In this document: positions 9,396 through 35,909 of the stretch, piece after piece
How the letters are laid out: every line of letters begins with the position of its first letter
Numbering within the stretch: position 1 is the first letter of the stretch
Virus record (IMG/VR): IMGVR_UViG_3300010413_000124
Origin: a virus
Direction: 5' to 3' (one strand)
Length of the DNA: 43,116 nt
The notes under the pieces: model-generated
Database searches by the model: none
What the model was told of the DNA's origin: nothing
Seen by the model: only the letters and a program-made list of their open reading frames with translations
Position numbers and translations under genes: made by a program

Positions 9396-9751
9396 TGCAC
9401 GGTGTCCGCATAATGGTAGATGGTTTCAACTAGTTGGCCATCGATCCAGATTTCATCTGTATCCACAACGTGTGCGCAATTCTCATCACAAGCGGTGAGT
9501 CCGCGAGCTACCCACTCTGGATGAATGTTGGTACAGCGTGATACTTGTGTCCAATTTCCGCCAGTGATGGTCCAATTGGGATCTTGTCTTACGTTGACCC
9601 AGTTGCCACCTGTGATGGCAAGTGTTTTTCCGACTAGAATTGGGGTATCTGGTGTGTGTTGTGAAAAATTGCCACCTTTGATGGTTGAACCGTTTGGTAC
9701 TGCGTCTCCGGGGTCGATGAAAGACCAATTACCTTTTGTGATCTCACTCAT
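9392..9751 (-). CDS. hypothetical protein with three GGN(F/W) repeats
   Basis: KGGNFSQ / TGGNWVNV / TGGNWTQV spaced ~20 aa apart; ATGA overlap with the downstream beta-helix gene. Confidence 0.5.
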   Translation of the reverse strand: MSEITKGNWSFIDPGDAVPNGSTIKGGNFSQHTPDTPILVGKTLAITGGNWVNVRQDPNWTITGGNWTQVSRCTNIHPEWVARGLTACDENCAHVVDTDEIWIDGQLVETIYHYADTVQ

Positions 9752-9986
9752 CTTCGTTGATCTTCCAGTCTGATAAGTATTGGTGTAGTTGGACAGCTAG
9801 CCACATTACTGGGTCTTTACTGTTGGCAAGCGTATCACTGCTGCTATTGATCCAACGTTTGCGCTGTTCTGGAGTGAGCTTATCCCATACCGCTTTTCGT
9901 TTGTCCATCTCTGCTTGAAAGGCTTGAAAGGTGGGCAAAGCACCTTGTATTAGCGTTCGTTGGTCAGTCAAGTTTATGACGGTCAT
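9744..9986 (-). CDS. hypothetical protein (first gene of minus-strand 3-gene operon)
   Basis: GGAGA 7 nt upstream of the minus-strand ATG. Confidence 0.5.
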   Translation of the reverse strand: MTVINLTDQRTLIQGALPTFQAFQAEMDKRKAVWDKLTPEQRKRWINSSSDTLANSKDPVMWLAVQLHQYLSDWKINEDE

Positions 9987-10011
9987 AATGTGTCTCCATC
10001 ATATCTTTGCG

Positions 10012-10080
10012 GGTATTAACGGAGATAATACCTCTTGCAACAGTTCCTTTAGGACTGATGTATTATATCTACAAAGATAT
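10012..10080. promoter_or_regulatory. divergent intergenic region with two palindromes (GGTATTA-n7-TAATACC; ATATCT-n4-AGATAT) and a TTGCAA -35-like hexamer
   Basis: Inverted repeats read directly at 10012-10032 and 10065-10080, between the minus-strand operon start (9986) and the + gene at 10114. Confidence 0.4.
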
Positions 10081-10113
10081 GGGGGACTTTGCCATCGTAT
10101 TCAAAGGTGAGCC

Positions 10114-10707
10114 ATGAAACTCGAAATGATCCTCGAACAATACCAAGACCCCCAGATGCGGCTGGCCGTTCGGAACATCCGCAACAGAGCTATTCTCGAG
10201 TCCAAAGTGCCCCAGTCAGGGGCTTACTGGTGGCTCCCGACGCCCGACGGAAGCTGGGAACTAGAAGTCTTCTACGACTCCGAGTACCGTGGCAACACCA
10301 TGCACGACATAATGTGGCGGAAATATGTCCTAGACCGCCTCGCCATACTCTGGAACAAAGACCCCCAGAAACTCCGCCGCCAAATCGGCGACAACTACGC
10401 TGGCCTCCCGCGCGGAAGAGTCGGCAAAGCTATGGGCAAATTCGTCGTATCCCACGGCGACGACGCCCCCATCAAGAACGGTCTAAAAAAGGTGCTCGCG
10501 GCCTTCAATCTAAGTGGGCTAGCAAGGACTGACCCCAAGAAAGTGCAGACCGCCGCCGACGAGCACGAGACAATGTTGGCTGGCGATCCGGACTCCGTGC
10601 AACGAGCCTTGGGTGTAGATCTAGGTCTGAAAGGGAGCTATGGTTCTTCCGCTGGGATGCGGGCGGGTATACTTATGGATTTGGATGATGACTATGAGGA
10701 CTACTAA
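10114..10707 (+). CDS. hypothetical protein
   Basis: ORF track; the overlapping Arg/Pro-rich frame 10089-10532 was rejected. Confidence 0.5.
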   Translation: MKLEMILEQYQDPQMRLAVRNIRNRAILESKVPQSGAYWWLPTPDGSWELEVFYDSEYRGNTMHDIMWRKYVLDRLAILWNKDPQKLRRQIGDNYAGLPRGRVGKAMGKFVVSHGDDAPIKNGLKKVLAAFNLSGLARTDPKKVQTAADEHETMLAGDPDSVQRALGVDLGLKGSYGSSAGMRAGILMDLDDDYEDY

Positions 10708-11183
10708 TGACTAACGATGAACTAAGCGAAGCCTGTCGCCAAATAATTCAATCTAACAACTTTGTTGACGCGAAATTGGACGACCTCGATTCCTGGACGG
10801 CGGGGATCATCCACCAATTCCTAGAAACCGCCAAGTTGCGTTGGCAAGTTGCAAGCGAGTCCGTGGGGCTGGTGCGAATCATCAAAATCTTTGATGATAG
10901 GCTCAGGTATGTCATTTCGATGCCGTATAAGTCCTACGACGAGCAGACTTGCAGCCAGTTCTATTGGATGATTGGCGACGATCCCAACAACGATGATCAT
11001 AGTATCAGTCCTGACGCGGCCAGTGCCTATTTGTTGTCTAAGATACATCCTGGGATTAAGGTGGAAGATATTCGCGGCGAAGACGGTTCATGCTTGACCA
11101 GGATGACGTTGCCAACTGGCGAACACGTTGATGTGGCGTTCCCGCCAGAGTTCTTTTCGGACAAGACCTGGGCTGGGGAATGA
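10707..11183 (+). CDS. hypothetical protein
   Basis: Start overlaps the previous stop (TAATG). Confidence 0.5.
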   Translation: MTNDELSEACRQIIQSNNFVDAKLDDLDSWTAGIIHQFLETAKLRWQVASESVGLVRIIKIFDDRLRYVISMPYKSYDEQTCSQFYWMIGDDPNNDDHSISPDAASAYLLSKIHPGIKVEDIRGEDGSCLTRMTLPTGEHVDVAFPPEFFSDKTWAGE

Positions 11184-11241
11184 TCCAGTTCCGCAGTATA
11201 TCTGTTTCACCGCAAGAAAATATAAGTTGGAGGAATCCACT

Positions 11242-11625
11242 ATGCGGCATGACCAAATCAGATATATTGCGTCTTTACTCACCGAAGATCCAGATGCCTT
11301 CGTGGAACCAGCCGAATTAGATCCCAATCAGTCGGAACAAAACCAAAATATTTGTGTAAGTTGTGATGAAGAGATCGCTCCGAAGGATATTGGCAAATAC
11401 GACGGATTGTGTTACTTATGTGCGAATACGTCTAATTTCCTCGGTTCGACGCAGCGGGGCGGGTATACTTATGCAGATTACGCTGATAGAAAAATGGCCG
11501 AGCCAGGTCCTGTTGTTTTTGCCGCAGCGGGCGAACGAGAAGGGGCTAAGCGTGGTGAAGCACAAAGTAGAGCATATCACGGCCTAGGGTCTACTTATCC
11601 GAATCGATCCGGGCTGAATACATGA
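11242..11625 (+). CDS. hypothetical Cys-rich (zinc-ribbon-like) protein
   Basis: GGAGG 9 nt upstream of ATG 11242; CVSC...CYLC. Confidence 0.5.
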   Translation: MRHDQIRYIASLLTEDPDAFVEPAELDPNQSEQNQNICVSCDEEIAPKDIGKYDGLCYLCANTSNFLGSTQRGGYTYADYADRKMAEPGPVVFAAAGEREGAKRGEAQSRAYHGLGSTYPNRSGLNT

Positions 11626-11626
11626 A

Positions 11627-11905
11627 TTACCGTTCCATAATGGTGAGCACGACTTCTTCCACTGTATCATTGCAGTAGAATTCTATACCATTTATTAATG
11701 ATACTTCGGTTTTTCCTTCCTGGCTTACGACGTTCGTCTTCCTGATGGATACGACGTGTGCTGCATTGATGTAAGCTGGGCCGATATTGGTTTCAATTTT
11801 GACTAGCTTCATGCCTTCGCCGAGATAGCCATATACCCTGGTCCAACCAGCGCCGATGCTTGTGAACAGGCAAACAGCAAAGATTGCTAAGAATAAATTT
11901 CGCAT
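11627..11905 (-). CDS. small secreted protein or lipoprotein (N-terminal signal-like hydrophobic segment)
   Basis: MRNLFLAIFAVCLFTSIGAG...; GGAG upstream of the internal ATG at 11905. Confidence 0.45.
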   Translation of the reverse strand: MRNLFLAIFAVCLFTSIGAGWTRVYGYLGEGMKLVKIETNIGPAYINAAHVVSIRKTNVVSQEGKTEVSLINGIEFYCNDTVEEVVLTIMER

Positions 11906-11924
11906 TTTTTGCTCCGAGGGCGAC

Positions 11925-12194
11925 ATGGAAAAAGAAGCTTTATACGATGCTTTGACTGGACTATCTGCTTACGATGCTGGTGCTACAGATTCTGGCATCC
12001 AGGACGAAGTCTTGCGGCGGAAAGTGATAGAACATTTGAATTCCCTGGATGAACAGGAATTTCGTTTAGTGATCTCTAGATATGTGAGAGATACCTATCT
12101 GACCGACGAAGCTTTGCAGCAAGGGTATGGATTGGAGGATGTTATTGAGTTCGCTGGTTGGATGAGTACCGAGATGGGTATGGACATTGCATGA
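11925..12194 (+). CDS. hypothetical acidic protein
   Basis: ATG 11925 chosen to avoid overlap with the minus-strand gene. Confidence 0.4.
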   Translation: MEKEALYDALTGLSAYDAGATDSGIQDEVLRRKVIEHLNSLDEQEFRLVISRYVRDTYLTDEALQQGYGLEDVIEFAGWMSTEMGMDIA

Positions 12195-12715
12195 ATGTCG
12201 TGATTAAGCGAAATAGGGCTGGCTGCTATTTCTTCCATCATAACGGAATAATGTGGGGTCCCTATTTGTCTGATGCGGATGCCCGAGCAAAGGTTCGCGA
12301 ACTTAGTGATGATATTGCGAAAAAAGCGGCTCGTGCTAGGACGCGGGCGAAATCGCTACATGTTCGGCGAAGCAAGCGCCAGAAGATTGTGGACGAAAAC
12401 AAGAATACCCTCATCGATCAATGGCGGTCGGGTCTCTTCCAAGGACCAGCCTTTTTTCGGAAAATGCCTGGCCCTGCTGGCGTAATGGTATTGGAGCCAA
12501 GAGAGCTTTGTGATCCAAATTGCGAACCAGTTATAGCATGGTTTGGTCCGAAGATTAATCACACTTTGGATAATTTTCGCCCATTGCTCCTTCAGGATGG
12601 TTCATATTATCTCTATGCATATGCTGGTGATATAGTTAATCTCGCTTTTGCTCATCAGTTTCGCATACATATCAAATATATTCTAGATATAACCAAAGAA
12701 GTAGAGGATGCATGA
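12191..12715 (+). CDS. hypothetical protein
   Basis: ATGA overlaps at both ends. Confidence 0.5.
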   Translation: MNVVIKRNRAGCYFFHHNGIMWGPYLSDADARAKVRELSDDIAKKAARARTRAKSLHVRRSKRQKIVDENKNTLIDQWRSGLFQGPAFFRKMPGPAGVMVLEPRELCDPNCEPVIAWFGPKINHTLDNFRPLLLQDGSYYLYAYAGDIVNLAFAHQFRIHIKYILDITKEVEDA

Positions 12716-13215
12716 AGCTACAGCTGATTCTAGAAAATAAGACGCGAGTAGCCCATGTCGGGGCCAGTACCGATCCAAATAACCCAGAACGGGAGATTTG
12801 GGGAGAGAATGACCAATGGCATATCGATACGGTCATGCGTTGGCTTATTGATCGGGACGAGCATGAGTGCCTTTATTACGACCGGCGAGTAGATGATTTC
12901 GTCGATCTGAATGACGGGCGGGATTTCTTGGAGGAGAACAAACGATACGATATTGTTATTCTCCATATGGTCTATTCGCCAGACGATCCGATACGTAATT
13001 CTTACCGTTTCCACCCCAAAAGTTCATCGCCGTTTCGGACTTCTCGGTTGCATACGCGGGAAGCGTGGCGGCGACGCTTGGCCTCTACTGGTGCCAAGTA
13101 CATTTTCACTTTTGGTGATTATGATGAGGTGAGTGGGTTCTATCTTGGTGCTATTCCTGGCTACGAAGGACCGATTGAAGCCAGCGACATGTTTCACGTC
13201 TATCTGAAACGGTAG
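12712..13215 (+). CDS. hypothetical protein
   Basis: ORF track. Confidence 0.5.
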   Translation: MKLQLILENKTRVAHVGASTDPNNPEREIWGENDQWHIDTVMRWLIDRDEHECLYYDRRVDDFVDLNDGRDFLEENKRYDIVILHMVYSPDDPIRNSYRFHPKSSSPFRTSRLHTREAWRRRLASTGAKYIFTFGDYDEVSGFYLGAIPGYEGPIEASDMFHVYLKR

Positions 13216-13288
13216 TACCACTTATATAGTTCGACATCAGACGGACCTCTGTATATATGGACAGTTTTGTTCATATAGGAGGTTCGTT

Positions 13289-14178
13289 ATGAACTATTGT
13301 CTGTTGTTGCCCTTGCTGATTTTCGGTGCCGGAGATACACCGGGAGTATCGGGGCCACCTGGTTGGCATAATAGTTATGCCAAAGCTATGGCTGCTGCCA
13401 AAGCATCTAACACAATGATGGTCGTTTACTTCTACGACGGTCAGAAAAGTGTGCGGGATGATTATGTCTATAAATTGCTGACGACTGATCAGGATTTGGT
13501 GGTGGCTTCTAAGCCTTGTACTATGGCTTATGTTCCCACTGGGTATACCGCTAGTGTTGGCGGCAAAGAAATGCGGTTGTTGGATCATCCCGGTTGTTGG
13601 ATCATCCCGCTTTTTCAGAGTTGCGACGAGGGCCGGGGCTCGTGTTCATTGATTTCGGTGATCCGAAGTCTAAGCATTATGGGCATGTGGTTACTGTCTA
13701 CCCGTTATCTGTCGGGTCGATATACTATATGTCTAATCCCGTCAATAAGAACTATATTCTGCAGCTCTTCAAGCTCCCGCGAGCTTCTCTTAGTCAGAGA
13801 ACTATGATTTGGGCCGTTAGGATTCATCCGGAGCGTCCCCAGAGTACTTATGGGCAGTTCTCGTCCTATTTGGCTGACGAAGCTGAGTCGCATTCGAATT
13901 ACCAGGCCGCTATTGCCAATCAGGGGCACCATAATTGGGATAGTAGGTTTCATCGGATCAATGGGCATTTTCCGGGATTTTTGGCGCAGGAGGTTTGTGC
14001 GGAGAGTTGGCCCGGTAAGGGGTTGTTTGCTGCGGCTATTGATTGTGTGCATAGTTGGCGACAATCTTCGGGGCATTGGGGTGCCGTTCGTTCGCGTCAG
14101 AATTACTATGGCTATGATATCAGTTGTGGCCGGAATGGCATCTGGTATGCAACGGGCATTTTTTCTGCGCGTCGTTAG
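13289..14178 (+). pseudogene. secreted protein gene (signal peptide; possible C-terminal CAP/SCP-like segment) split into ORFs 13289-13807 and 13594-14178 by a 17-bp tandem duplication
   Basis: Removing one 17-nt unit fuses both ORFs in frame (...GGKEMRLLDHPAFSELRRGPG...) into a ~290-aa protein. N-terminus MNYCLLLPLLIFGAG; C-terminal SGHWGAVRS resembles CAP GHYTQVVW. Confidence 0.6.
13574..13607 (+). repeat. perfect tandem duplication, 2 x 17 bp (CGGTTGTTGGATCATCC)
   Basis: Read directly: ...atgCGGTTGTTGGATCATCCCGGTTGTTGGATCATCCcgc... Confidence 0.9.
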
Positions 14179-14308
14179 GGCAAAACTATAGGTGGATATC
14201 GTCTATTGGTGAGGCTGACTGTTCGAGTAATATAGAACGCGCACATCATGGCTACAGCAGAATATAGGAGGGAAGGCAGAAGGAGCTTTTGGTACAGAGG
14301 GTAGACAT

Positions 14309-16066
14309 ATGTCTCTGATGAAACGAGTACTGTTTGTGATTTTGTTGGTCTTGGTCGTTAGCTCAACAGCACTGGCCCAGGGCAACAGAAAATTGATAGA
14401 GCGGAGTGACAACTCCGTTTTTTACACCCAAACCAAGCAAGTGCTTGATGTTTCTCCCGTCGTCTTGATCGACGCCGGTGCAACCAAAGGTAGCGGCGTT
14501 TATGTCGGGACTGATCTGGTTTTGACAGCCGCTCATCTCTTCCCGTCTGGCAGTTCTGCCGTTGTCCATTTCCGAAATGGCACACAAATTCGTGGCACAG
14601 TCTGCGCCAAAGACCAATTTTGGGATCAAGCGATGGTGAAGCTCACCGCTATCCCAAAGAACGTCAAACCAGCCCCAATAGCCACTTCCAACCCGAAAAT
14701 CGGGGAAATCGTGTACGCCGTTGGTTATCCGGGCGGTGAAATGCGGCTTGAGGCAATAACTGGCCGCGTGAAAGATTATGCCAAGCCGAAGGGATACAGT
14801 GTACCCCCTGATTGGTTCTTATTCAGCGGTGGTGCTGCCAAGCCTGGTGCTTCTGGCGGACCGATCTTCAACACCAAGGGTGAAGTGATCGGTAGTTTGT
14901 GGGGTTCTCGCACGGTTGAGATGTCCACAACTGGTATCATGTGTGGTCGTACGAGGAGATTTTGTTCTCCTTTTAGTAATCGGATTTCGCAATGGGGTGG
15001 TTGTGGTCCTAGTGGTTGTGGTATCGGTGGTGGTAGACAAGTCCAAATAGTTCCTCGGAATCCTGGTTACTCACAACCTCCTGGTTACTCACAACCAATC
15101 CTAGAGCCACCAATTATTACCGAGCCTCCCGTGGTGACAGAGCCGCCAGTTGTTACTGAACCGACTCCAACGCCAGTTGATATAACTGCCATCGTCGATT
15201 TAGTCATCGACAAAATCCGACAAGATCCTTCTTTGTTGCCGCCAGGCCCACAAGGCCCAGAGGGGCCGCAGGGTCCGGAAGGTCCTCCTGGTCAAATCAC
15301 GTCTGAGCATATTGCGTCGGTCGTGGACCAATTGAAAAACGACGAGGACTTTTTGGCTTCGGTGCGTGGCCCGGCAGGCCCAGAAGGTCCGCCAGGACAA
15401 AATGGTGCAGATGCCACCATTACTCCTGAGTTGTTGGCGACTATGACGGCGGCGATTCTGCAGAATCTTAAGAATGACCCTGGTTTCATAGCTGAGGTTC
15501 AAGGTCCTCCTGGACCAATTGGTCCAGCTGGTCCGGAGGGTCCAGAAGGCCCAATGGGTCAGACTGGTCCAGCGGGGCCTCCTGCTGAGATTACTGCTGA
15601 GCAGCTTGCGAATATGACTGCTGCTATTCTGCACAATTTGAAGAACGACGAGAATATGAGGGGTCCGGAAGGTCCTCCTGGTCCGGAAGGTCCTCCTGGA
15701 ACTCCGGGTACTACGCCTGACTTGTCTGATTTGATTGCGAGGATTGAAGCTTTGGAGAATGGGTCTGGTGATGTAGATATACCGGATAATTCTGAGTACG
15801 AGTGGTCTCATTTGGTACTTGTTGCTAGTTCAGAAGCGGATTATTGGCCTAGATTATCGGGAGAGTTCGAACGCACCAAAGGTTATTGGAATATGTTGCG
15901 TCATATCGAGCCTCCTGAGGATAGGCAGATCGGGCCGCTACCAATTTTGGTGGCCTATACTGCTGGGAAACCGGCACAAAACTGGGTTGGCTTGCGGGAT
16001 GTCTCGCAGGCATTTTCTCAAATCACTCGCGGCGATTATGACGATTTCATCGTTGCCAAAAAGTGA
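14309..16066 (+). CDS. secreted trypsin-like serine protease fused to collagen-like (GPxGPxG) repeats alternating with three ~25-aa helical repeats
   Basis: Signal peptide MSLMKRVLFVILLVLVVSSTALA; TAAHL (His) and GASGGP (Ser) motifs; PGYSQP x2, TEPPVV x2; collagen stretches GPQGPEGPQGPEGPPG etc.; repeats ITSEHIASVVDQLKNDEDF / ITPELLATMTAAILQNLKNDPGF / ITAEQLANMTAAILHNLKNDEN. Confidence 0.6.
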   Translation: MSLMKRVLFVILLVLVVSSTALAQGNRKLIERSDNSVFYTQTKQVLDVSPVVLIDAGATKGSGVYVGTDLVLTAAHLFPSGSSAVVHFRNGTQIRGTVCAKDQFWDQAMVKLTAIPKNVKPAPIATSNPKIGEIVYAVGYPGGEMRLEAITGRVKDYAKPKGYSVPPDWFLFSGGAAKPGASGGPIFNTKGEVIGSLWGSRTVEMSTTGIMCGRTRRFCSPFSNRISQWGGCGPSGCGIGGGRQVQIVPRNPGYSQPPGYSQPILEPPIITEPPVVTEPPVVTEPTPTPVDITAIVDLVIDKIRQDPSLLPPGPQGPEGPQGPEGPPGQITSEHIASVVDQLKNDEDFLASVRGPAGPEGPPGQNGADATITPELLATMTAAILQNLKNDPGFIAEVQGPPGPIGPAGPEGPEGPMGQTGPAGPPAEITAEQLANMTAAILHNLKNDENMRGPEGPPGPEGPPGTPGTTPDLSDLIARIEALENGSGDVDIPDNSEYEWSHLVLVASSEADYWPRLSGEFERTKGYWNMLRHIEPPEDRQIGPLPILVAYTAGKPAQNWVGLRDVSQAFSQITRGDYDDFIVAKK

Positions 16067-16108
16067 TCGCACATTGTAATAACCTGCTATCGCAGGTGGG
16101 AGTTAACA

Positions 16109-16339
16109 ATGCCTCTTGATGCGGAAGTCGCTGATCTGCTGAAAATGGAAGGAATGAGCGGCGCTCGTGAGTCGGCTCGTCTGACTGGCGCTGTGGACCG
16201 GAACCTCGTGCAGGGTTTGGGCGTGGTCAACACGACTCTGATCCAGCAACACGGTTCGACCGCTGATGATGCGGCCACGATGGCTGCTCTGCGTACGGCG
16301 ATCTACGTGCCCGAACTGGGCAACACGAAGACTGTCTAA
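16109..16339 (+). CDS. small conserved protein, paralog A (76 aa)
   Basis: 72/76 aa identical to paralog B, yet the nucleotide sequence differs at many synonymous sites. Confidence 0.6.
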   Translation: MPLDAEVADLLKMEGMSGARESARLTGAVDRNLVQGLGVVNTTLIQQHGSTADDAATMAALRTAIYVPELGNTKTV

Positions 16340-16361
16340 CGCGGACTGATTGTTGCGGATG

Positions 16362-16396
16362 ATGACCTCGCTCGTTCTTAGAGCGAGCGAGGTCAT
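16362..16396 (+). terminator. 13-bp perfect hairpin (ATGACCTCGCTCG / CGAGCGAGGTCAT) after paralog A; weak U-tract
   Basis: Inverted repeat read directly. Confidence 0.45.
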
Positions 16397-16467
16397 TTCC
16401 ACTAATTAGGCAAGGATGGTGAAGATCTTCACTTTTGTTTTTCTCGTTTTACGAGAAGGAGTAAGTT

Positions 16468-16701
16468 ATGCCTCTTGATGCCGAAGTTGCCGACCTTCTG
16501 AAGATGGAAGGAATGGCGGGAGCTAGAGAATCGGCACGTCTGACCGGTGCTGTGGACCGCAATTTGGTCCAGGGCTTGGGTGTCGTGAATACGACCCTCA
16601 TTCAGCAGCACGGCTCGACGGCTGATGATGCTGCAACGTACGCTGCACTGCGCACGGCGATCTACGTGCCGGAATTGGGTAACGCGAAGAAGCCCACGTA
16701 G
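16468..16701 (+). CDS. small conserved protein, paralog B (77 aa)
   Basis: See paralog A; AGGAG 7 nt upstream. Confidence 0.6.
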   Translation: MPLDAEVADLLKMEGMAGARESARLTGAVDRNLVQGLGVVNTTLIQQHGSTADDAATYAALRTAIYVPELGNAKKPT

Positions 16702-16723
16702 GTATTGTTGCGGTAAGACATTC

Positions 16724-16766
16724 GATGGCTGGTGGCTGGGTGGCCAGCTATCAGCCATCGTTTTTA
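16724..16766 (+). terminator. rho-independent terminator (GATGGCTGG...CCAGC..CAGCCATC followed by GTTTTTA)
   Basis: Hairpin plus T-tract. Confidence 0.6.
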
Positions 16767-16783
16767 TCGTAAAGGCGGTTGAA

Positions 16784-16954
16784 ATGGCTGATCCAGATAT
16801 TGCGAACATCTATGACGAAGTAAGGTTGGAAATCGAATCACATCGTGTGATGAGTGCCAACTTCCAACTGTTTTGCGAGGAGACCATTGGCAACCTCGCT
16901 GCGTTGAAGTTACTAAATGATGAGACCGTCGAAGAATCGGTAAAAAACTCATGA
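16784..16954 (+). CDS. small acidic protein (57 aa)
   Basis: AAGGCGG upstream of ATG 16784; ATGA overlap with the next gene. Confidence 0.45.
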   Translation: MADPDIANIYDEVRLEIESHRVMSANFQLFCEETIGNLAALKLLNDETVEESVKNS

Positions 16955-17541
16955 ACGCTCCAACTGTTGCACCCGAAATTCAGCAAGAGGCCGCTAGGTC
17001 GCTGTTGGAGCGGCTTAGTGAAAAGAACGCATTGGTCCGGTTTTTCCGCTACAATGCTAGCGCTAAGCACGGAGTGCCGATTGACCCACCGCCGTCCTAT
17101 TTCACAGGCCGGAGCGAAAGTACAAGTACGACAACTACGACAACCGAACAGCCGCCCAATAATGGCGTCACAGTCATCGATGACACCAAAAACGGTCAAA
17201 CTGGTCAGACCGGGCAAGGTACTACAAAAGTAGACGTCGCACAAACACCGCCAAATATTTCCGTGAACGTTGCTGCACCACCAGCGGCTGTCGCTCCAGC
17301 ATCCAGCGGTAACGACATTCTCAAGGGAATAATCTACACGTTAGCCGCTCTGGCAGCTCTCGGTGGTGCTATCGCACTCGGGTATGCCATGAGTGGCGGT
17401 AAATCCTCAGATCAAACCAAAGCTCCGACGACCACCACTACCACAGATCAACAGCAACAGGTGGAGAAAAGAATCATTCAAAGCCCGTTGCAGTTTTTGG
17501 AGGACATCGGGGCACATCGCCCGGAGATCGTTGATGAGTAG
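16951..17541 (+). CDS. membrane protein with Thr-rich low-complexity tracts and one TM helix
   Basis: TM segment GIIYTLAALAALGGAIALGYAM; STSTTTTTTEQPP and TTTTTTDQQQQ tracts. Confidence 0.5.
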   Translation: MNAPTVAPEIQQEAARSLLERLSEKNALVRFFRYNASAKHGVPIDPPPSYFTGRSESTSTTTTTTEQPPNNGVTVIDDTKNGQTGQTGQGTTKVDVAQTPPNISVNVAAPPAAVAPASSGNDILKGIIYTLAALAALGGAIALGYAMSGGKSSDQTKAPTTTTTTDQQQQVEKRIIQSPLQFLEDIGAHRPEIVDE

Positions 17542-17884
17542 TGATAATCCTACTGAACTTGACCCCGTACCAGACGACGATACTGAAGAAATCAGAGATA
17601 TAGACGCGGAAAAAGAAATATTCCTCCGCAACTTCATGGCCAGGCAACGAGAATTGCAGAAGAAATCTCTGACTGCTGTAGCCAATCTTGCCACCGCCAA
17701 CATGGAATTGATTCTGCGAAGCGGTATAAACGAAGTAGCCGCCAAACGTACTAGAACAGCCACTCTCACGTCCAAGAATGATGTAATTAGTGACTTACTC
17801 AAAGAGCAGGTCAAACAGCGCGTCGATGGGAACGAACAAATTATCGCACGCATCATGAGAGCTGTGGACATCAATGTCGAGTGA
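17534..17884 (+). CDS. hypothetical protein
   Basis: ATG 17534 overlaps the previous stop; ATGA overlap downstream. Confidence 0.45.
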   Translation: MSSDNPTELDPVPDDDTEEIRDIDAEKEIFLRNFMARQRELQKKSLTAVANLATANMELILRSGINEVAAKRTRTATLTSKNDVISDLLKEQVKQRVDGNEQIIARIMRAVDINVE

Positions 17885-18194
17885 TAGAACAGAACGCCTG
17901 AAGTTTTTCATGGAAAAACTGAAGGAGATGGAAGAAGAAGCCCAGCAGGAGGAATTATCCCTGTGGGGCAGTGCCATAGGCGGCAACAATACCGCAGGCG
18001 GCGTAGATCTATCCAACAGCCCCAAGTATCGTGAAATCATTGCGTTGCTTCACCAGACACCATTATTGGTAAATCCAACCCTGAAATTCATTCAGTCCAA
18101 AATGGTAGCTCTGTCTCGTGCCCAGCTTGCAGCCTTGTACACGGAAGAAGAGATACAAGAACTGATAAAAGAAGCACAAGAGGCGGCGAAGTAA
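17874..18194 (+). CDS. hypothetical coiled-coil-like protein
   Basis: ORF track. Confidence 0.45.
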   Translation: MSSDRTERLKFFMEKLKEMEEEAQQEELSLWGSAIGGNNTAGGVDLSNSPKYREIIALLHQTPLLVNPTLKFIQSKMVALSRAQLAALYTEEEIQELIKEAQEAAK

Positions 18195-18257
18195 AAGATA
18201 CGTAGAGGGGTATGTGGGATTTCCGAACAGAGGACCTTTGTTAAGGAGGGTAAAATC

Positions 18258-18683
18258 ATGATTCGGTTACTTTTGTGCACTGCAATAGTGCTCTGTTGCT
18301 GTGGAATGGTGATAGGACAGGATAGTGTACTTCTGCCAACGCCAGCACAGCAAGATCCAGCTGCACCGGCCCCACAAGGCCCGGTAGTAGCACAACCTCC
18401 TGTTGTGGCAGGGCCTGTCGTGGCAGCCCCCGTCATTGCAGGACCACAACCAGTATGGTTCATCCAGAAGAAGTTCTTGGGCCACGGCTACAGAGCTAAA
18501 CCGGGATGGATCAACGTGGGATGTTGTGCAGCACCCGTTGCACCTCCTGTGATTGCCCAGCCGGTCATGCGGACTGTGATGGTGCCAATGCAGGTCCAAA
18601 CTTACGTGTACCGGGCTCCACAGCCGGTAACGGTTGTGCGACCCGAAGTACGCTACCGGGCTGAGACATACTGGCGCTACTGA
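18258..18683 (+). CDS. secreted Pro/Val/Ala-rich protein
   Basis: Signal-like MIRLLLCTAIVLCCCGMVIG; AGGAGG 8 nt upstream; repeats PVVAQPPVVAGPVVAAPVIAGP. Confidence 0.5.
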   Translation: MIRLLLCTAIVLCCCGMVIGQDSVLLPTPAQQDPAAPAPQGPVVAQPPVVAGPVVAAPVIAGPQPVWFIQKKFLGHGYRAKPGWINVGCCAAPVAPPVIAQPVMRTVMVPMQVQTYVYRAPQPVTVVRPEVRYRAETYWRY

Positions 18684-18723
18684 TGTTCCTCCTGTGGGTG
18701 GTGGGACTGACAGGTTGTTCCCT

Positions 18724-18763
18724 GACAACGCCGCAAGTAGTCGATGCTGCTTGCGGCGTTGTC
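18724..18763 (+). terminator. 14-bp perfect hairpin (GACAACGCCGCAAG / CTTGCGGCGTTGTC), no U-tract; TATAAT immediately downstream
   Basis: Read directly; a terminator, attenuator or RNA-stability element. Confidence 0.4.
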
Positions 18764-18785
18764 GTATAATCAGCAAAAATAGAGT

Positions 18786-19163
18786 ATGAATCTATTAGAC
18801 ATCATATCCAGCGTGGACGATACGTCCGCTATCCTGGAACTGAAAGATCGATTCGAACAATGGGGGCTGACCGTCCAACAAGCCCCATCTGGCAAGATAT
18901 TCATATGCCGCATTCATGAGGGCGAAATCAGTCACGACGCATTATACGAAGATCATTTCCCAGTCGGAATGCCCAATCGCCCCTTATCAGATCGAGTACT
19001 AGAATCGATCGTCGAATTTGTCCAAACCAACAAAAGCGAGCCCAAACAACTCAAAACAATTGAAAAACCTGGGAACTACGGCCTATATGGTGCCAGCATA
19101 CGTGATAACCGAATAAGCAGCGAGCTGGTATCAGCGATCGACGAGTTTTTACAAGACGGGTGA
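18786..19163 (+). CDS. hypothetical protein
   Basis: ORF track. Confidence 0.45.
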   Translation: MNLLDIISSVDDTSAILELKDRFEQWGLTVQQAPSGKIFICRIHEGEISHDALYEDHFPVGMPNRPLSDRVLESIVEFVQTNKSEPKQLKTIEKPGNYGLYGASIRDNRISSELVSAIDEFLQDG

Positions 19164-28781: not shown

Positions 28782-30126
28782 TATTGTCGGCCAAGATCAT
28801 CTAGTAGGACCTGGCGGCGTCTTCTACGAAATGGCCAATAAGCAGATATTGCAAAACGTTCTGCTTTGGGGGCCTCCCGGTAGTGGCAAAACCACCATCG
28901 CTTTCGCGCTCGCCAATGAAACTGACAGCCACTTCCGAAAACTAGACGCTACGGTTAATGGCATCAAAGAATTGCGGGCCATTATCAAATTCGCAGAAAG
29001 TCAAGACAAACGAGTTATCCTGGCTGTTGATGAGATCCACCGTTGGGCCAAGAACGTTCAAGATACTCTCCTGGCCGCCGTCGAGAACGGTACTATCATC
29101 CTGATTGGTCTCACCGTTGAAACGGCTCGCTTCGCTGTCATCAAAGCTCTCTTGTCCCGTTGTCTGATTTTGGAAACAAAGCCGCTCGACAATCCCGCTC
29201 TTGTCGCCCTGTACAAGCGCGTCAAAGACCATTACAAGACCGAAGGCCGTACGATTTCTATTGACAAAGAAACCGTGAAAAAGCTCATCGTTCGCTCTTC
29301 CGGCGATGCTCGCAAAGTCATCATGGTGCTCGAGACTCTTATCGAAATCATGAGCGATGATGGGGTCATTAAGGACAAAGATCTTGATTTGGTGATGCCG
29401 CACAAGCATCTCTTCTGCGATGCTCTTGGTTCTGAACATTACGATCTGGCCCATTGCTACCAAGAATCCATCCAAAATTCGGACGTGAACGCGGCTATTT
29501 ATTGGCTGGCCAAATGGATTGAATCGGGCGAAGATCCGGCTTATATCTGTCGTCGTATGCTCATCACTGCTTTTGAGGATTGTGCTGGCAATCCTTTTGC
29601 TGCGACGACAGCGATGGCCGCTTCTTATACGACGGAGCGAACCGGTCTACCAGAATGCATGATCCCTATGGCGTTGGCGACTTGTGAGATGGCGATGAGT
29701 AGGCGCAACAAATCAGCTTATCACGCCATCAGTTCTGCCGTGGCCGACGTGCGAGACAAAGCCACGGTACACGTACCCCATGGGTTGCGGGCCGGAACGA
29801 TGGGCTATGTTCGGGCCATCAAGCGTACTTATCTGAAAGGATGGTGCAAAGACTGGGACGTGCTACGGAATATGCCAATTGACCACAACAATGTGGTGCA
29901 GCAAAATGGCGGCATCATGTACGGATGTGGTGTTGAGCATGAGCCAGGTTCTTTTGGAATGTATGACGGACCTACCCCTGACTTATATGCTCTATTGATG
30001 ACTACCGGCCAAGAGAATGCAGTTATCATCCAATTCACTGGCGAGATGGATGAAGTTATCTATAGATGGGACGAAATCGACGAATGGGTCAAAGTGGAGG
30101 AAAGCGATGTTGGACAACCTAACTAG
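28705..30126 (+). CDS. rarA: RarA/MgsA-family AAA+ ATPase (replication-associated recombination protein A-like) with extra C-terminal extension
   Basis: VGQDHLVGPGG, Walker A GPPGSGKTT, Walker B ILAVDEIHRW, TIILIGLTVETARFAV, LLSRC, and MgsA C-terminal-like AIYWLAKWIESGEDPAYICRR. Confidence 0.7.
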   Translation: MMSTPKLQVARTTPLAIKLRPSKFADIVGQDHLVGPGGVFYEMANKQILQNVLLWGPPGSGKTTIAFALANETDSHFRKLDATVNGIKELRAIIKFAESQDKRVILAVDEIHRWAKNVQDTLLAAVENGTIILIGLTVETARFAVIKALLSRCLILETKPLDNPALVALYKRVKDHYKTEGRTISIDKETVKKLIVRSSGDARKVIMVLETLIEIMSDDGVIKDKDLDLVMPHKHLFCDALGSEHYDLAHCYQESIQNSDVNAAIYWLAKWIESGEDPAYICRRMLITAFEDCAGNPFAATTAMAASYTTERTGLPECMIPMALATCEMAMSRRNKSAYHAISSAVADVRDKATVHVPHGLRAGTMGYVRAIKRTYLKGWCKDWDVLRNMPIDHNNVVQQNGGIMYGCGVEHEPGSFGMYDGPTPDLYALLMTTGQENAVIIQFTGEMDEVIYRWDEIDEWVKVEESDVGQPN

Positions 30127-30460
30127 TGTTGCAGATGCTAATGACGTCCTTATCGAGGAAGGTGCACTGTGTATTCTAAACATTACTCAGGGAGACATGA
30201 AAATCTCCTTCGATAAAGACAAACCGGAAGAAGTAGAACACGCTCGCAAGGTCATTGATGACATGCTCAAACGCGGTTATACGATTCTGGTACAATGGGG
30301 TAGCGGGTGGCGGCGAGCCAAGACCTTTATTCCCAGTAGGGACACTTACGTCATCGAAACTAGTGAAAAGAAGGAAGACGGCACCACGGAGGTGAAGAAA
30401 GAAGAAGTACCGGCCAGGAAGGCTCGAGCTATGGCTGTTGCTCCGACGGCGGGAGGTTGA
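30107..30460 (+). CDS. hypothetical protein
   Basis: GGAGG 7 nt upstream of ATG 30107. Confidence 0.45.
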   Translation: MLDNLTSVADANDVLIEEGALCILNITQGDMKISFDKDKPEEVEHARKVIDDMLKRGYTILVQWGSGWRRAKTFIPSRDTYVIETSEKKEDGTTEVKKEEVPARKARAMAVAPTAGG

Positions 30461-30461
30461 T

Positions 30462-30689
30462 ATGAACACTCCCGAACAAGCGGTTGGCGATTTGGCAATT
30501 GGTTTGGGTCAATTGATAGCGGCAGAACATGCACCACCAGAGAGAGATCCGGCCTACAAATGTTTTGTCGAATCTGTATTAGTTCTGGCTTTTCATGCTG
30601 GTGTGTCGAAAGAAAAAGCTATCCAACCTTTTGATGTCTTCACACACCACGCTACCACAATTTGGGACACACTCGAGAAAAACAAATGA
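30462..30689 (+). CDS. hypothetical protein
   Basis: GGGAGG upstream. Confidence 0.45.
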   Translation: MNTPEQAVGDLAIGLGQLIAAEHAPPERDPAYKCFVESVLVLAFHAGVSKEKAIQPFDVFTHHATTIWDTLEKNK

Positions 30690-31555
30690 AAATGCTGCTA
30701 GGATGCACCGGACGAGGCGGGGAGCAATGCATATTCTCAGCTATTGTGGCGGCTTATAAAAAAGGCCATCCGGACTACCACACCTATATTGCTGTACCCC
30801 CTGAGTTTGCCCAGTACTGGCATCATGACAAGAGAGTGACTCTGGTGTTGTTGGAGCATGAAGACCCGAACGCGCCCTATTTCAAAGATCCGATCGGTAA
30901 ATGGCACAGAATTGCTTCCGGCTTTGAATACTCTTTCTCTGAGTTTATTGCTGAGTATGGCAATTGGAAGCCGGAGAACCCCGCAATTGAGAATATCTGG
31001 GAGAAACTCAGGCATCGACCATGTACTCTCGAACAACTGGAGAGAAAAGTCTGTCTGACCCCCGGCGAAGATGACCTCAAGGTAGCAGAAGAAATCAGGA
31101 TGAAATACGGTGAGGATTTGGTGGTGATCTCGCCCAAATCTAACAGTGCTTGCGAAGTTATACCGCCAGCCTGGTACAAGGAATTGGCACATCAAATAGG
31201 CAAGCATTATCCTGTTGCTACTACCGGTCGCGGGCCTGGGTCATATTGTGGACAACCCACTCTGGCTGACGAGGCAATACCAGGCACGATCGATCTTGTT
31301 GGTAGATCAATTCTTTCTTTGTATGCTATGTCTAGTTGGCTTAAGCGGTTTGTTGGGCCGGATACGGCTACTCCGTGGGTAGTAGCGAATATGCCTGGTA
31401 AGCTGTTGGTGATACGTGGGGACGACACGTTCCCTATTTCTAATACCGGATTGGTTGTGAACGGTTTTCGCAGTCCGACTAATACCATGGAATATCATGC
31501 GGTCGGCAAGACGCTTACCGAAGTCATCGATACTTGTCTAGCGTGGATACTATAA
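30686..31555 (+). CDS. hypothetical protein, possible GT9 (heptosyltransferase-like) glycosyltransferase
   Basis: C-terminal GRSILSLYAMSSWLKRFVGPDTATPWVVANMPGKLLVIRG resembles the GT9 donor-binding region; weak. Confidence 0.35.
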   Translation: MKMLLGCTGRGGEQCIFSAIVAAYKKGHPDYHTYIAVPPEFAQYWHHDKRVTLVLLEHEDPNAPYFKDPIGKWHRIASGFEYSFSEFIAEYGNWKPENPAIENIWEKLRHRPCTLEQLERKVCLTPGEDDLKVAEEIRMKYGEDLVVISPKSNSACEVIPPAWYKELAHQIGKHYPVATTGRGPGSYCGQPTLADEAIPGTIDLVGRSILSLYAMSSWLKRFVGPDTATPWVVANMPGKLLVIRGDDTFPISNTGLVVNGFRSPTNTMEYHAVGKTLTEVIDTCLAWIL

Positions 31556-32322
31556 TGGATGAAGAAATAACCGATGAATTCAAAGCAGAACTCAAAGAGA
31601 AAGGGTACGACGAAGAACTTTCGTTTGACCAGGTCAAAAAGCTTCTAGCAACTGCTGCGGAGATGAAGGGGGAGTGGGCTGGCATCCCTTGTGCTTTAGA
31701 AGACATGCGATTGATTATGGAGCCACGATATCCCTACCCAGAAATAGCTAAGACAAAAGCTTCTGAGGAAGAAGACAAAATACTTGCTTTGTTCGACATC
31801 ATCGAAAAGAAGCGCGGCACCAAGGTAGTAAATCAGTGGTATGATGGTAGGCGGGTCATATCTGTCGTTCAGGACAAAAATGGTCGGGCTCACCATCTCA
31901 AATCACCAACCTACGGTGGGCGATCGGTAGACCTCCAAATTAATACTATTGGAGCTGCACGTGCTTGGGATGTGGACGCTGAATTTATTGCTATGATCCG
32001 ATTACGGCAATTGTTGAAGAATTGGCCGTGGTCTAGCTATGTGATGACTGGCTCATTTTTGGAGACTAGTCCTCGCAGCAAGATCATGTACATGTTTCGG
32101 CGTTGTCGGCCTACGCTGGCTTTTGCCAACGATGGTGAAAAAGTGAGGATTTTGGCGGCGCTGTGTTTGCATCCGATAGGGTATTATCAGGACAGCTTTG
32201 CTGGTGTGTTAGTCCCGACAGACGATGTTATCGCCCACTTGTTGCTGATGAGAGCTGATGAGAAGAAATTCTGGTCGAAGGCTAATCAGCATCATCTATG
32301 GGAACCTGAGGCGGGTTGTTAG
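31555..32322 (+). CDS. hypothetical protein
   Basis: TAATG overlap with the upstream gene. Confidence 0.45.
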   Translation: MDEEITDEFKAELKEKGYDEELSFDQVKKLLATAAEMKGEWAGIPCALEDMRLIMEPRYPYPEIAKTKASEEEDKILALFDIIEKKRGTKVVNQWYDGRRVISVVQDKNGRAHHLKSPTYGGRSVDLQINTIGAARAWDVDAEFIAMIRLRQLLKNWPWSSYVMTGSFLETSPRSKIMYMFRRCRPTLAFANDGEKVRILAALCLHPIGYYQDSFAGVLVPTDDVIAHLLLMRADEKKFWSKANQHHLWEPEAGC

Positions 32323-32330
32323 GGGATCAA

Positions 32331-32681
32331 ATGAAAGCTGATACCAAGTCGCGATGGTTAGCTATGTCGCAAGCTGTGGCTGATGGTGAATCGCTTGATA
32401 GCGTAGCAATTCGATTTGAGGTGTCGCTCGGGACGGTGAAAAGGGGCTGCGATGAAAACGGTATCGAATATGAAAGATGCGGCAACAAATGGGTCGTGTG
32501 CCGATCATCTGCTCAGTATACTGGTTTCTGTGCTGCGTGCGGTGAACGTTTTGGTATGAGGAAACGAGCGGAATTGGTCGATATATATGCTGTACCACCC
32601 GTACATAGCGAGTTTGCGTATTGTTGGGAATGTGCTGAGGAAAAATTGCGTGGAATTGTTCCTGCTAGGCAGATTATTTAA
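32331..32681 (+). CDS. HTH (sigma-70 region-4-like) plus zinc-ribbon DNA-binding protein
   Basis: GESLDSVAIRFEVSLGTVKR; CAACGER...CWEC. Confidence 0.4.
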   Translation: MKADTKSRWLAMSQAVADGESLDSVAIRFEVSLGTVKRGCDENGIEYERCGNKWVVCRSSAQYTGFCAACGERFGMRKRAELVDIYAVPPVHSEFAYCWECAEEKLRGIVPARQII

Positions 32682-33176
32682 ATGGCTGAATTTGGCCAAC
32701 CTGTTTTCTATCGATATTTTGAGCACCAGGTCTTGAAAGCAGACACTTTTGGTTTCCGCGATACTATTAATCAAGATGTCTACTTGGTCGTATTCGGTCC
32801 CGACCTAGATAGTATCGCTAATCCAAATGTCGAGCCCATAGGTGTTTACCACTATGCCGGGATACGCCGCTATTTGTGGAGGGACACTTTTTGGACGGAG
32901 TTAGATTGGGATAGACGTGCCATTTCCGAGCGAGTCTCGGAATTATTGTGCAGCAGGTGTAGTAAGGAAGATGGCCTTGCTTACCGTCGGATTCTTGATC
33001 TAATTCATTTGGCGTCCAGATGCGGGGCTCCTAGTCCTACAGATACCCACCCGCCGCTGAATGATGCGTTTTCGCAGGCGGTGCAGGCGGCGTTCAAGTT
33101 CAATATTTGTGATTTTGTGGTGGAGGCTAAGAAGCGGAAGAAATATTGTCGGGCTATGCATAAAATTAATGCCTAA
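32682..33176 (+). CDS. hypothetical protein
   Basis: ORF track. Confidence 0.45.
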   Translation: MAEFGQPVFYRYFEHQVLKADTFGFRDTINQDVYLVVFGPDLDSIANPNVEPIGVYHYAGIRRYLWRDTFWTELDWDRRAISERVSELLCSRCSKEDGLAYRRILDLIHLASRCGAPSPTDTHPPLNDAFSQAVQAAFKFNICDFVVEAKKRKKYCRAMHKINA

Positions 33177-35814: not shown

Positions 35815-35822
35815 TCGGCGGT

Positions 35823-35896
35823 GGGCCGGTAGCTCAGTTGGTCAGAGCAGGGGACTCATAATCCCTTTGTCGCGGGTTCAAATCCTGCCCGGCCTA
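35823..35896 (+). tRNA. tRNA-Met (anticodon CAU; elongator-type, or Ile2 if lysidine-modified)
   Basis: GGGCCGG acceptor, D arm GCTCAGTTGGTCAGAGC, anticodon loop CTCATAA, T arm GCGGG-TTCAAAT-CCTGC. Lacks the three G:C pairs of an initiator anticodon stem. Confidence 0.75.
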
Positions 35897-35909
35897 TTTG
35901 GAGGTTAGA

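Follow-up and report, generated by a model that had tools for sequence, protein, structure and literature searches.

A gene for a putatively secreted protein with a thioredoxin-like and a CAP-fold domain is interrupted by a perfect 17-bp tandem duplication that shifts its reading frame, and we regard this as probably an ordinary, very recent and private knockout caused by a real duplication rather than as a switch. The contig that carries it is referred to as the window, which means the whole 43,116-nt stretch of DNA that was analysed. An initial annotation had left three options for the duplication, namely (i) a recent inactivating mutation, (ii) a reversible ON/OFF switch, or (iii) an assembly artefact; the first is the one that we favour.

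Direct reading of the site gives the unit CGGTTGTTGGATCATCC in two identical copies, head to tail, and TRF returned a single array at 13574-13609 (period 17, 2.1 copies, 100% matches) with the same consensus, so that the back-to-back perfect duplication claimed initially is borne out by both (Table 1). In the window, the two units (CGGTTGTTGGATCATCC CGGTTGTTGGATCATCC) are preceded by GGCAAAGAAATG and followed by CGCTTTTTCAG. The junction between the units consists of GGATCATCC joined to CGGTTGTTGG, and in the one-unit allele GGATCATCC runs straight into CGCTTTTTC. The second copy is directly followed by CG, the dinucleotide with which each unit opens and a third one would begin, and this gives a 2-bp microhomology that bounds the unit. 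At the duplication, DNA fold z-scores are about 0, i.e., unusual DNA structure was not found there, and a hairpin-driven duplication was rejected on this ground. With regard to homopolymers, a T5 lies just 3' of the site and the sole run of six in the gene is a T6 close to its 3' end.

Within the whole window, four perfect tandem duplications with a period of 10-40 were counted versus 0.1 expected from mononucleotide shuffles. The other three are two in-frame 18-nt duplications in a collagen-like gene and one 10-nt duplication at 32244. The latter (GCTGATGAGA twice, 32244-32263) is located near the 3' end of the ORF 31555-32322, and since the identical 255-aa product is encoded on three independent contigs, it can be considered a fixed natural feature and no lesion.

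Table 1. Features of the interrupted gene, its product and the duplicated site; nucleotide positions are those of the window.
Feature	Position	Strand	Basis or remark
Whole interrupted gene	13289..14178	+	290 aa with one unit removed
5' fragment ORF, 172 aa	13289..13807	+	ORF list
3' fragment, native frame, 194 codons with an internal TTG as start	13594..14178	+	ORF list
17-bp unit, copy 1 (CGGTTGTTGGATCATCC)	13574..13590	+	TRF, direct reading
17-bp unit, copy 2, same sequence as copy 1, with CG (13608-13609) directly 3' of it	13591..13607	+	TRF, direct reading, alignments
SNP-dense patch in the gene, 9 synonymous differences to L007 in 92 nt	13668..13759	+	alignments
Signal-peptide-like N-terminus	about residues 1-25 of the 290-aa protein		
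Thioredoxin-like domain without CxxC	about residues 26-135 of the 290-aa protein		
CAP/SCP-fold domain	about residues 160-290 of the 290-aa protein		

The 5' fragment starts from an ATG with an AGGAGG located 7 nt upstream, and its first 101 residues are native and cover the signal-peptide-like N-terminus together with two thirds of the thioredoxin-like domain, counted from the start of the domain; the remaining 71 are read out of frame. The 3' fragment lacks a signal peptide and comprises the rest of the thioredoxin-like domain along with the complete CAP-fold domain, and its amino acids are those of the intact allele found in the near-identical assembly L007 (see below); for this part, the gene caller of the source record called only 13804-14178 (124 aa). 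Deletion of one unit yields an ORF of 873 nt (290 codons), the junction of which reads EMRLLDHPAFSELRRG, and the corresponding peptide MRLLDHPAFSELRRG is the same in the best homolog P0001 and agrees with the family consensus including an invariant His. As such, the initial proposal that the two ORFs are one gene is confirmed by the exact 290-aa protein of L007, and the 1862 homologs together with the fit of the junction peptide to the family consensus establish that a genuine conserved gene is frameshifted. In an annotation, a single disrupted gene should be entered in place of the ORFs 13289-13807 and 13594-14178. The exact 172-aa product is on record solely from the window's own JGI/IMG contig, and an exact look-up of the fragment in the contig index returned no record. 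A scan for promoters and terminators near the gene gave nothing beyond shuffle expectation. Because the two-unit allele would require a -1 shift for rescue, -1 ribosomal slippage was also considered and put aside for lack of support, as the CTTTTTC after the repeat does not fit the canonical heptamer X XXY YYZ and also occurs in the intact allele.

In the comparison with related genomes suggested by the initial annotation, near-identical relatives were retrieved through an exact look-up of the upstream neighbour gene (12712-13215), and independent assemblies from four samples run across the site, namely L005 (JGI 3300009509), L006 (DRR851364), L007 (DRR851344) and L008 (SRR14699985). All four carry one unit, and when aligned to the window, each has a single gap of 17 nt, which falls on the repeat (placed at 13574-13590 in the alignments of L005 and L006, with the extra copy being either of the two identical units). 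Besides this gap, L006 has 0 mismatches to the window over 3939 nt. L007 spans the whole gene and encodes an intact 290-aa product that is identical to the repaired protein of the window, so that all 12 SNPs between the two within the gene are synonymous. Position 13608 is polymorphic, with C in the window, L005 and L006 and A in L007 and L008, the latter two being without the flanking CG microhomology.

An intact gene is likewise present in four more distant homologs: the syntenic L001 (82% DNA identity) and L002 (71%), both of which have one unit when aligned as DNA, L013, a related phage with 56% protein identity in which the gene lies beside a homolog of the neighbouring protease gene, and P0123. 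The DNA of the 17-mer varies among relatives (CGGTTATTGGACCATCC in L001, AGGTTGTTGGATCATCC in L002). With a dN/dS versus L001 of 0.043 for the gene and of 0.014 downstream of the junction, the gene is otherwise under strong purifying selection. The junction between two units occurs in none of 13 fetched loci, and the two-unit allele is private to the window's contig. Neither allele was found in IMG/VR, JGI metagenome contigs and GTDB genomes, collections that are evidently without the present phage (L005 is JGI-derived), and no relatives of the gene were found in IMG/VR.

For a real mutation, the following course is the probable one. In one contig, 17 bp bounded by the dinucleotide CG would have been duplicated in tandem, presumably through replication slippage between these short microhomologies. 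The 17 extra bases would shift the frame after codon 101, within the thioredoxin-like domain, 71 out-of-frame codons would be translated up to the stop, and the secreted product would lose the entire CAP-fold domain. The outcome would be a private, very recent loss-of-function allele, and it is from the frameshift after residue 101 and the missing CAP-fold domain that a loss of function can reasonably be inferred; precise loss of one unit could in principle restore the gene. By our verdict, the gene is non-essential though well conserved elsewhere.

Short tandem-duplication frameshifts that arise via slippage between microhomologies are of the classical Streisinger type, with examples in T4 rII and lysozyme. 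The present case shares with them the perfect head-to-tail, non-triplet duplication, the 2-bp microhomology (here CG), the apparent inactivation of a dsDNA phage gene and the revertibility in principle, and nothing essential is different, the present case being seen in a metagenome-assembled contig. Whether it is a slippage mutation of the textbook kind or an error of the assembly, the event is private to one contig.

An assembly error is the rival that survives best, and we consider it possible, although rather unlikely, that the phage in the sample has a one-unit gene and that 17 bases were added in the assembly or consensus when co-occurring haplotypes were merged. The two-unit allele comes from a single assembly and is known from assembled sequence alone, and the identity of the window to L006 over 3.9 kb save the 17 bases fits a very young mutation and an artefact equally well. 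Furthermore, the C/A polymorphism at 13608 directly abuts the repeat, and a SNP-dense patch, the flanks of which are nearly identical between the window and L007, starts 60 nt 3' of it. Five other assemblies break at or near this patch, with contig ends at 13667-13672 (L005, L006 and L008) and contig starts at 13760 (L003 and L004) and near 13639 (L011). The patch suggests either that two haplotypes co-occur or that a short stretch of the gene has recombined. Given the polymorphism at 13608 and the breaks 30-150 nt further 3', the assembler must resolve haplotypes in this region, and hence an artefact has to be reckoned with. The duplication itself was rejected as the cause of the breaks in the other assemblies, as these are located at the borders of the patch and away from the repeat.

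Against an artefact, however, stands that the one-unit sequence has no internal repeat that would be able to make a cycle in a de Bruijn graph and, as a matter of reasoning only, that a 17-nt overlap mismatches the usual odd k-mer sizes. Compared with independent assemblies over 9712-19066 and 29555-32710, the window shows a few SNPs and no other indel, and the absence of any further indel over ~12.5 kb argues against a generally indel-prone assembly. The sole other non-triplet perfect repeat, of 10 bp at 32244, also occurs in other assemblies and is genuine; with its presence in three independent contigs and the lack of other indels, a contig-wide bias to spurious tandem duplications was rejected. 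A further point for a real mutation is the CG microhomology that bounds the unit, which slippage would lead one to expect.

A reversible ON/OFF switch, by which the phage would gain and lose the 17-bp unit through slipped-strand mispairing and so toggle the secreted protein, is in our estimate very unlikely. It is true that one copy of a perfect tandem duplication can be deleted exactly, which would restore the gene, that the coding sequence 3' of the duplication is intact, so that reversion would restore function, and that contingency loci have recently been described in phages. These known loci are, however, homopolymer tracts of at least 6 bases inside a functional gene, which mutate at ~1e-4 or more (Gomez, Barrick & Waters, bioRxiv 10.1101/2025.10.21.683753). 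What the site has in common with them and with phase-variable simple sequence repeats of bacteria is a repeat in a coding region that causes a frameshift and could be reverted by polymerase slippage. The tract is there a homopolymer or of short units and belongs to the functional allele, whereas the functional allele here contains a single, non-repeated 17-mer (once in each of L005-L008). The ON allele being without a repeat, the change from ON to OFF would proceed at the basal rate of de novo duplication and not at a hypermutable one, and only the opposite direction could be fast. In addition, the DNA sequence of the tract differs among relatives (L001 and L002), the unit number does not vary among close relatives, the gene being intact in all four near-identical spanning contigs as well as in L001, L002, L013 and P0123, the flanking CG microhomology is absent in L007 and L008, and the DNA structure at the site is ordinary (z about 0). 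As such, relatives with one unit, a functional allele free of repeats and the lack of anything recurring at the site speak against this option of the initial annotation. A shade more doubtful again is the notion that gain and loss of the unit constitute a recurrent toggle in the population, i.e., a form of phage contingency via a long, non-homopolymeric unit that arises de novo; if true, the toggle would allow the phage to silence its secreted thioredoxin-like/CAP-fold protein, for example under conditions in which the protein is costly or a target of the host.

Lastly, an old, fixed pseudogene that decays in the present lineage, which the initial annotation had linked to a two-unit allele fixed in relatives and a degraded 3' part and for which the frameshift itself is the sole support, can practically be excluded because the two-unit allele is private and the downstream frame undamaged: relatives carry one unit, no further stops or indels are found downstream, the product of this part is identical to that of the intact allele, and 12 of 12 differences to L007 are synonymous.

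Whatever the origin of the duplication, the gene belongs to a large family. For the repaired protein, 1862 homologs were found at E up to 1e-3, the best being P0001 (288 aa) with 91% identity over 100% of the length and the next showing 76%. The named homologs are from Pirellulaceae, Pirellulales, Thermoguttaceae and Planctomycetaceae, and the family is mainly found in Planctomycetota. As seen among the homologs (P0016, P0022, P0028 and others), it occurs in two forms, one of about 287 aa, to which the present protein belongs, and one of 415-507 aa, and a precomputed Thioredoxin_7/Thioredoxin_2 match exists for most long-form and few short-form members. NCBIfam holds no model or name for the family.

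An AlphaFold2 model built from 108 family members was confident, with a pLDDT of 92.3 and a pTM of 0.89. The N-terminus is hydrophobic and poorly modelled, and a hydrophobic stretch is also found in 58 of the 62 short-form homologs, which is consistent with a putative signal peptide and agrees with the claim of the initial annotation that the repaired protein bears one. The N-terminal half, which that annotation had not assigned, is a thioredoxin-like domain, with a profile match to Thioredoxin_7 (PF13899) and a thioredoxin fold. In the segment aligned to residues 44-62 of the query, a CxxC motif is present in 2 of the 108 members and absent from the query. Since 106 of the 108 members lack the motif at its canonical position, which distinguishes the family from AGR2/AGR3 and Thioredoxin_7 (PF13899) domains, thiol-disulfide catalysis by this domain is unlikely.

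According to the model, the C-terminal domain adopts a CAP/SCP/PR-1 fold, an alpha-beta-alpha sandwich. The initial description of the protein as CAP-like thus holds for the fold and does not extend to membership of the Pfam CAP family by sequence: the repaired protein has no Pfam match at E up to 0.1, 1 of the 108 members matches Pfam CAP (PF00188), at an E of 0.08, and a profile search of PDB sequences with a limit of E 10 yielded no CAP chain. H208, E229, E233 and H257 are invariant in the 108 members and may correspond to the His-Glu-Glu-His tetrad of CAP proteins. Compared with bacterial CAP/SCP proteins such as the extracellular SCP-domain protein of PDB 4ifa and Borrelia burgdorferi BB0689 (PDB 4d53) and with eukaryotic PR-1, GAPR-1 and venom-allergen proteins, the present protein differs in having no significant Pfam CAP match and in the fusion of its CAP-fold domain to an N-terminal thioredoxin-like domain.

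That the gene sits on a phage contig was likewise absent from the initial annotation. The contig encodes a phrog_1645 virion structural protein (E 6e-62) and further phage-type genes, namely a clamp-loader-like/MgsA AAA+ protein, a phrog_1297 ATPase, a DUF2201 protein, a tail-fibre-like fusion of a trypsin-like protease with collagen repeats (see below) and two tRNAs, with the genes mostly on one strand; as terminal repeats are absent, it represents a fragment of a phage genome. The tRNAs are a tRNA-Leu(TAA) at 891-974 and a tRNA-Met(CAT) at 35822-35897, the former of which overlaps the 3' end of the minus-strand ORF 915-1580, so that this ORF may be spurious. No match to the contig was obtained in IMG/VR or among GenBank phages, the latter searched by blastn in distant mode with 12000-16200. 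The cellular homologs are standalone genes on megabase-scale planctomycete contigs beside a CLIPPER-repeat protein, neighbourhoods that gave no functional clue. The host is plausibly a planctomycete, and the phage copy is plausibly an accessory gene derived from it.

Some further genes of the window deserve mention. Directly downstream, 14309-16066 (+) encodes a 585-aa protein with a signal-like N-terminal segment, a trypsin-like protease domain (Trypsin_2, E 6e-25) and subsequent collagen-like GXY repeats, with perfect tandem repeats of 18 nt in them (at 15061 and 15662); its PHROG matches are tail-fibre proteins, and its gene adjoins the thioredoxin-like/CAP-fold gene also in L001, L002 and L013. 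Just 3' of it, a 223-nt direct repeat with 80.7% identity (16109-16331 versus 16468-16690) represents a pair of small paralogous genes with products of about 76 and 77 aa. The 877-aa product of 3998-6631 (+) matches Pfam MVP_shoulder (E 1.6e-17) and, in a phmmer search, eukaryotic major vault protein (MVP) chains (e.g., 4hl8_A and 11dr_A) at an E of about 1e-11 over approximately residues 446-807, and its length is similar to that of MVP (861-893 aa). The first viral MVPs have been reported from human-gut phages (2023 preprint, 10.1101/2023.11.10.566534), and the window contig appears to be a different phage from these. Finally, 7524-8378 (+) encodes a sulfotransferase-family protein (Sulfotransfer_3, E 1.2e-7; Sulfotransfer_1, E 1e-5) and may be an auxiliary gene of the phage.

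Overall, the duplication is of little importance as a mutation, and the thioredoxin-like/CAP-fold family and the few neighbouring genes described above are more notable. A large unnamed family that is invisible to Pfam CAP fuses a thioredoxin-like domain devoid of CxxC to a CAP-fold domain, and the strong purifying selection on the gene in several related phages suggests that its product may have a role at the host envelope during infection.
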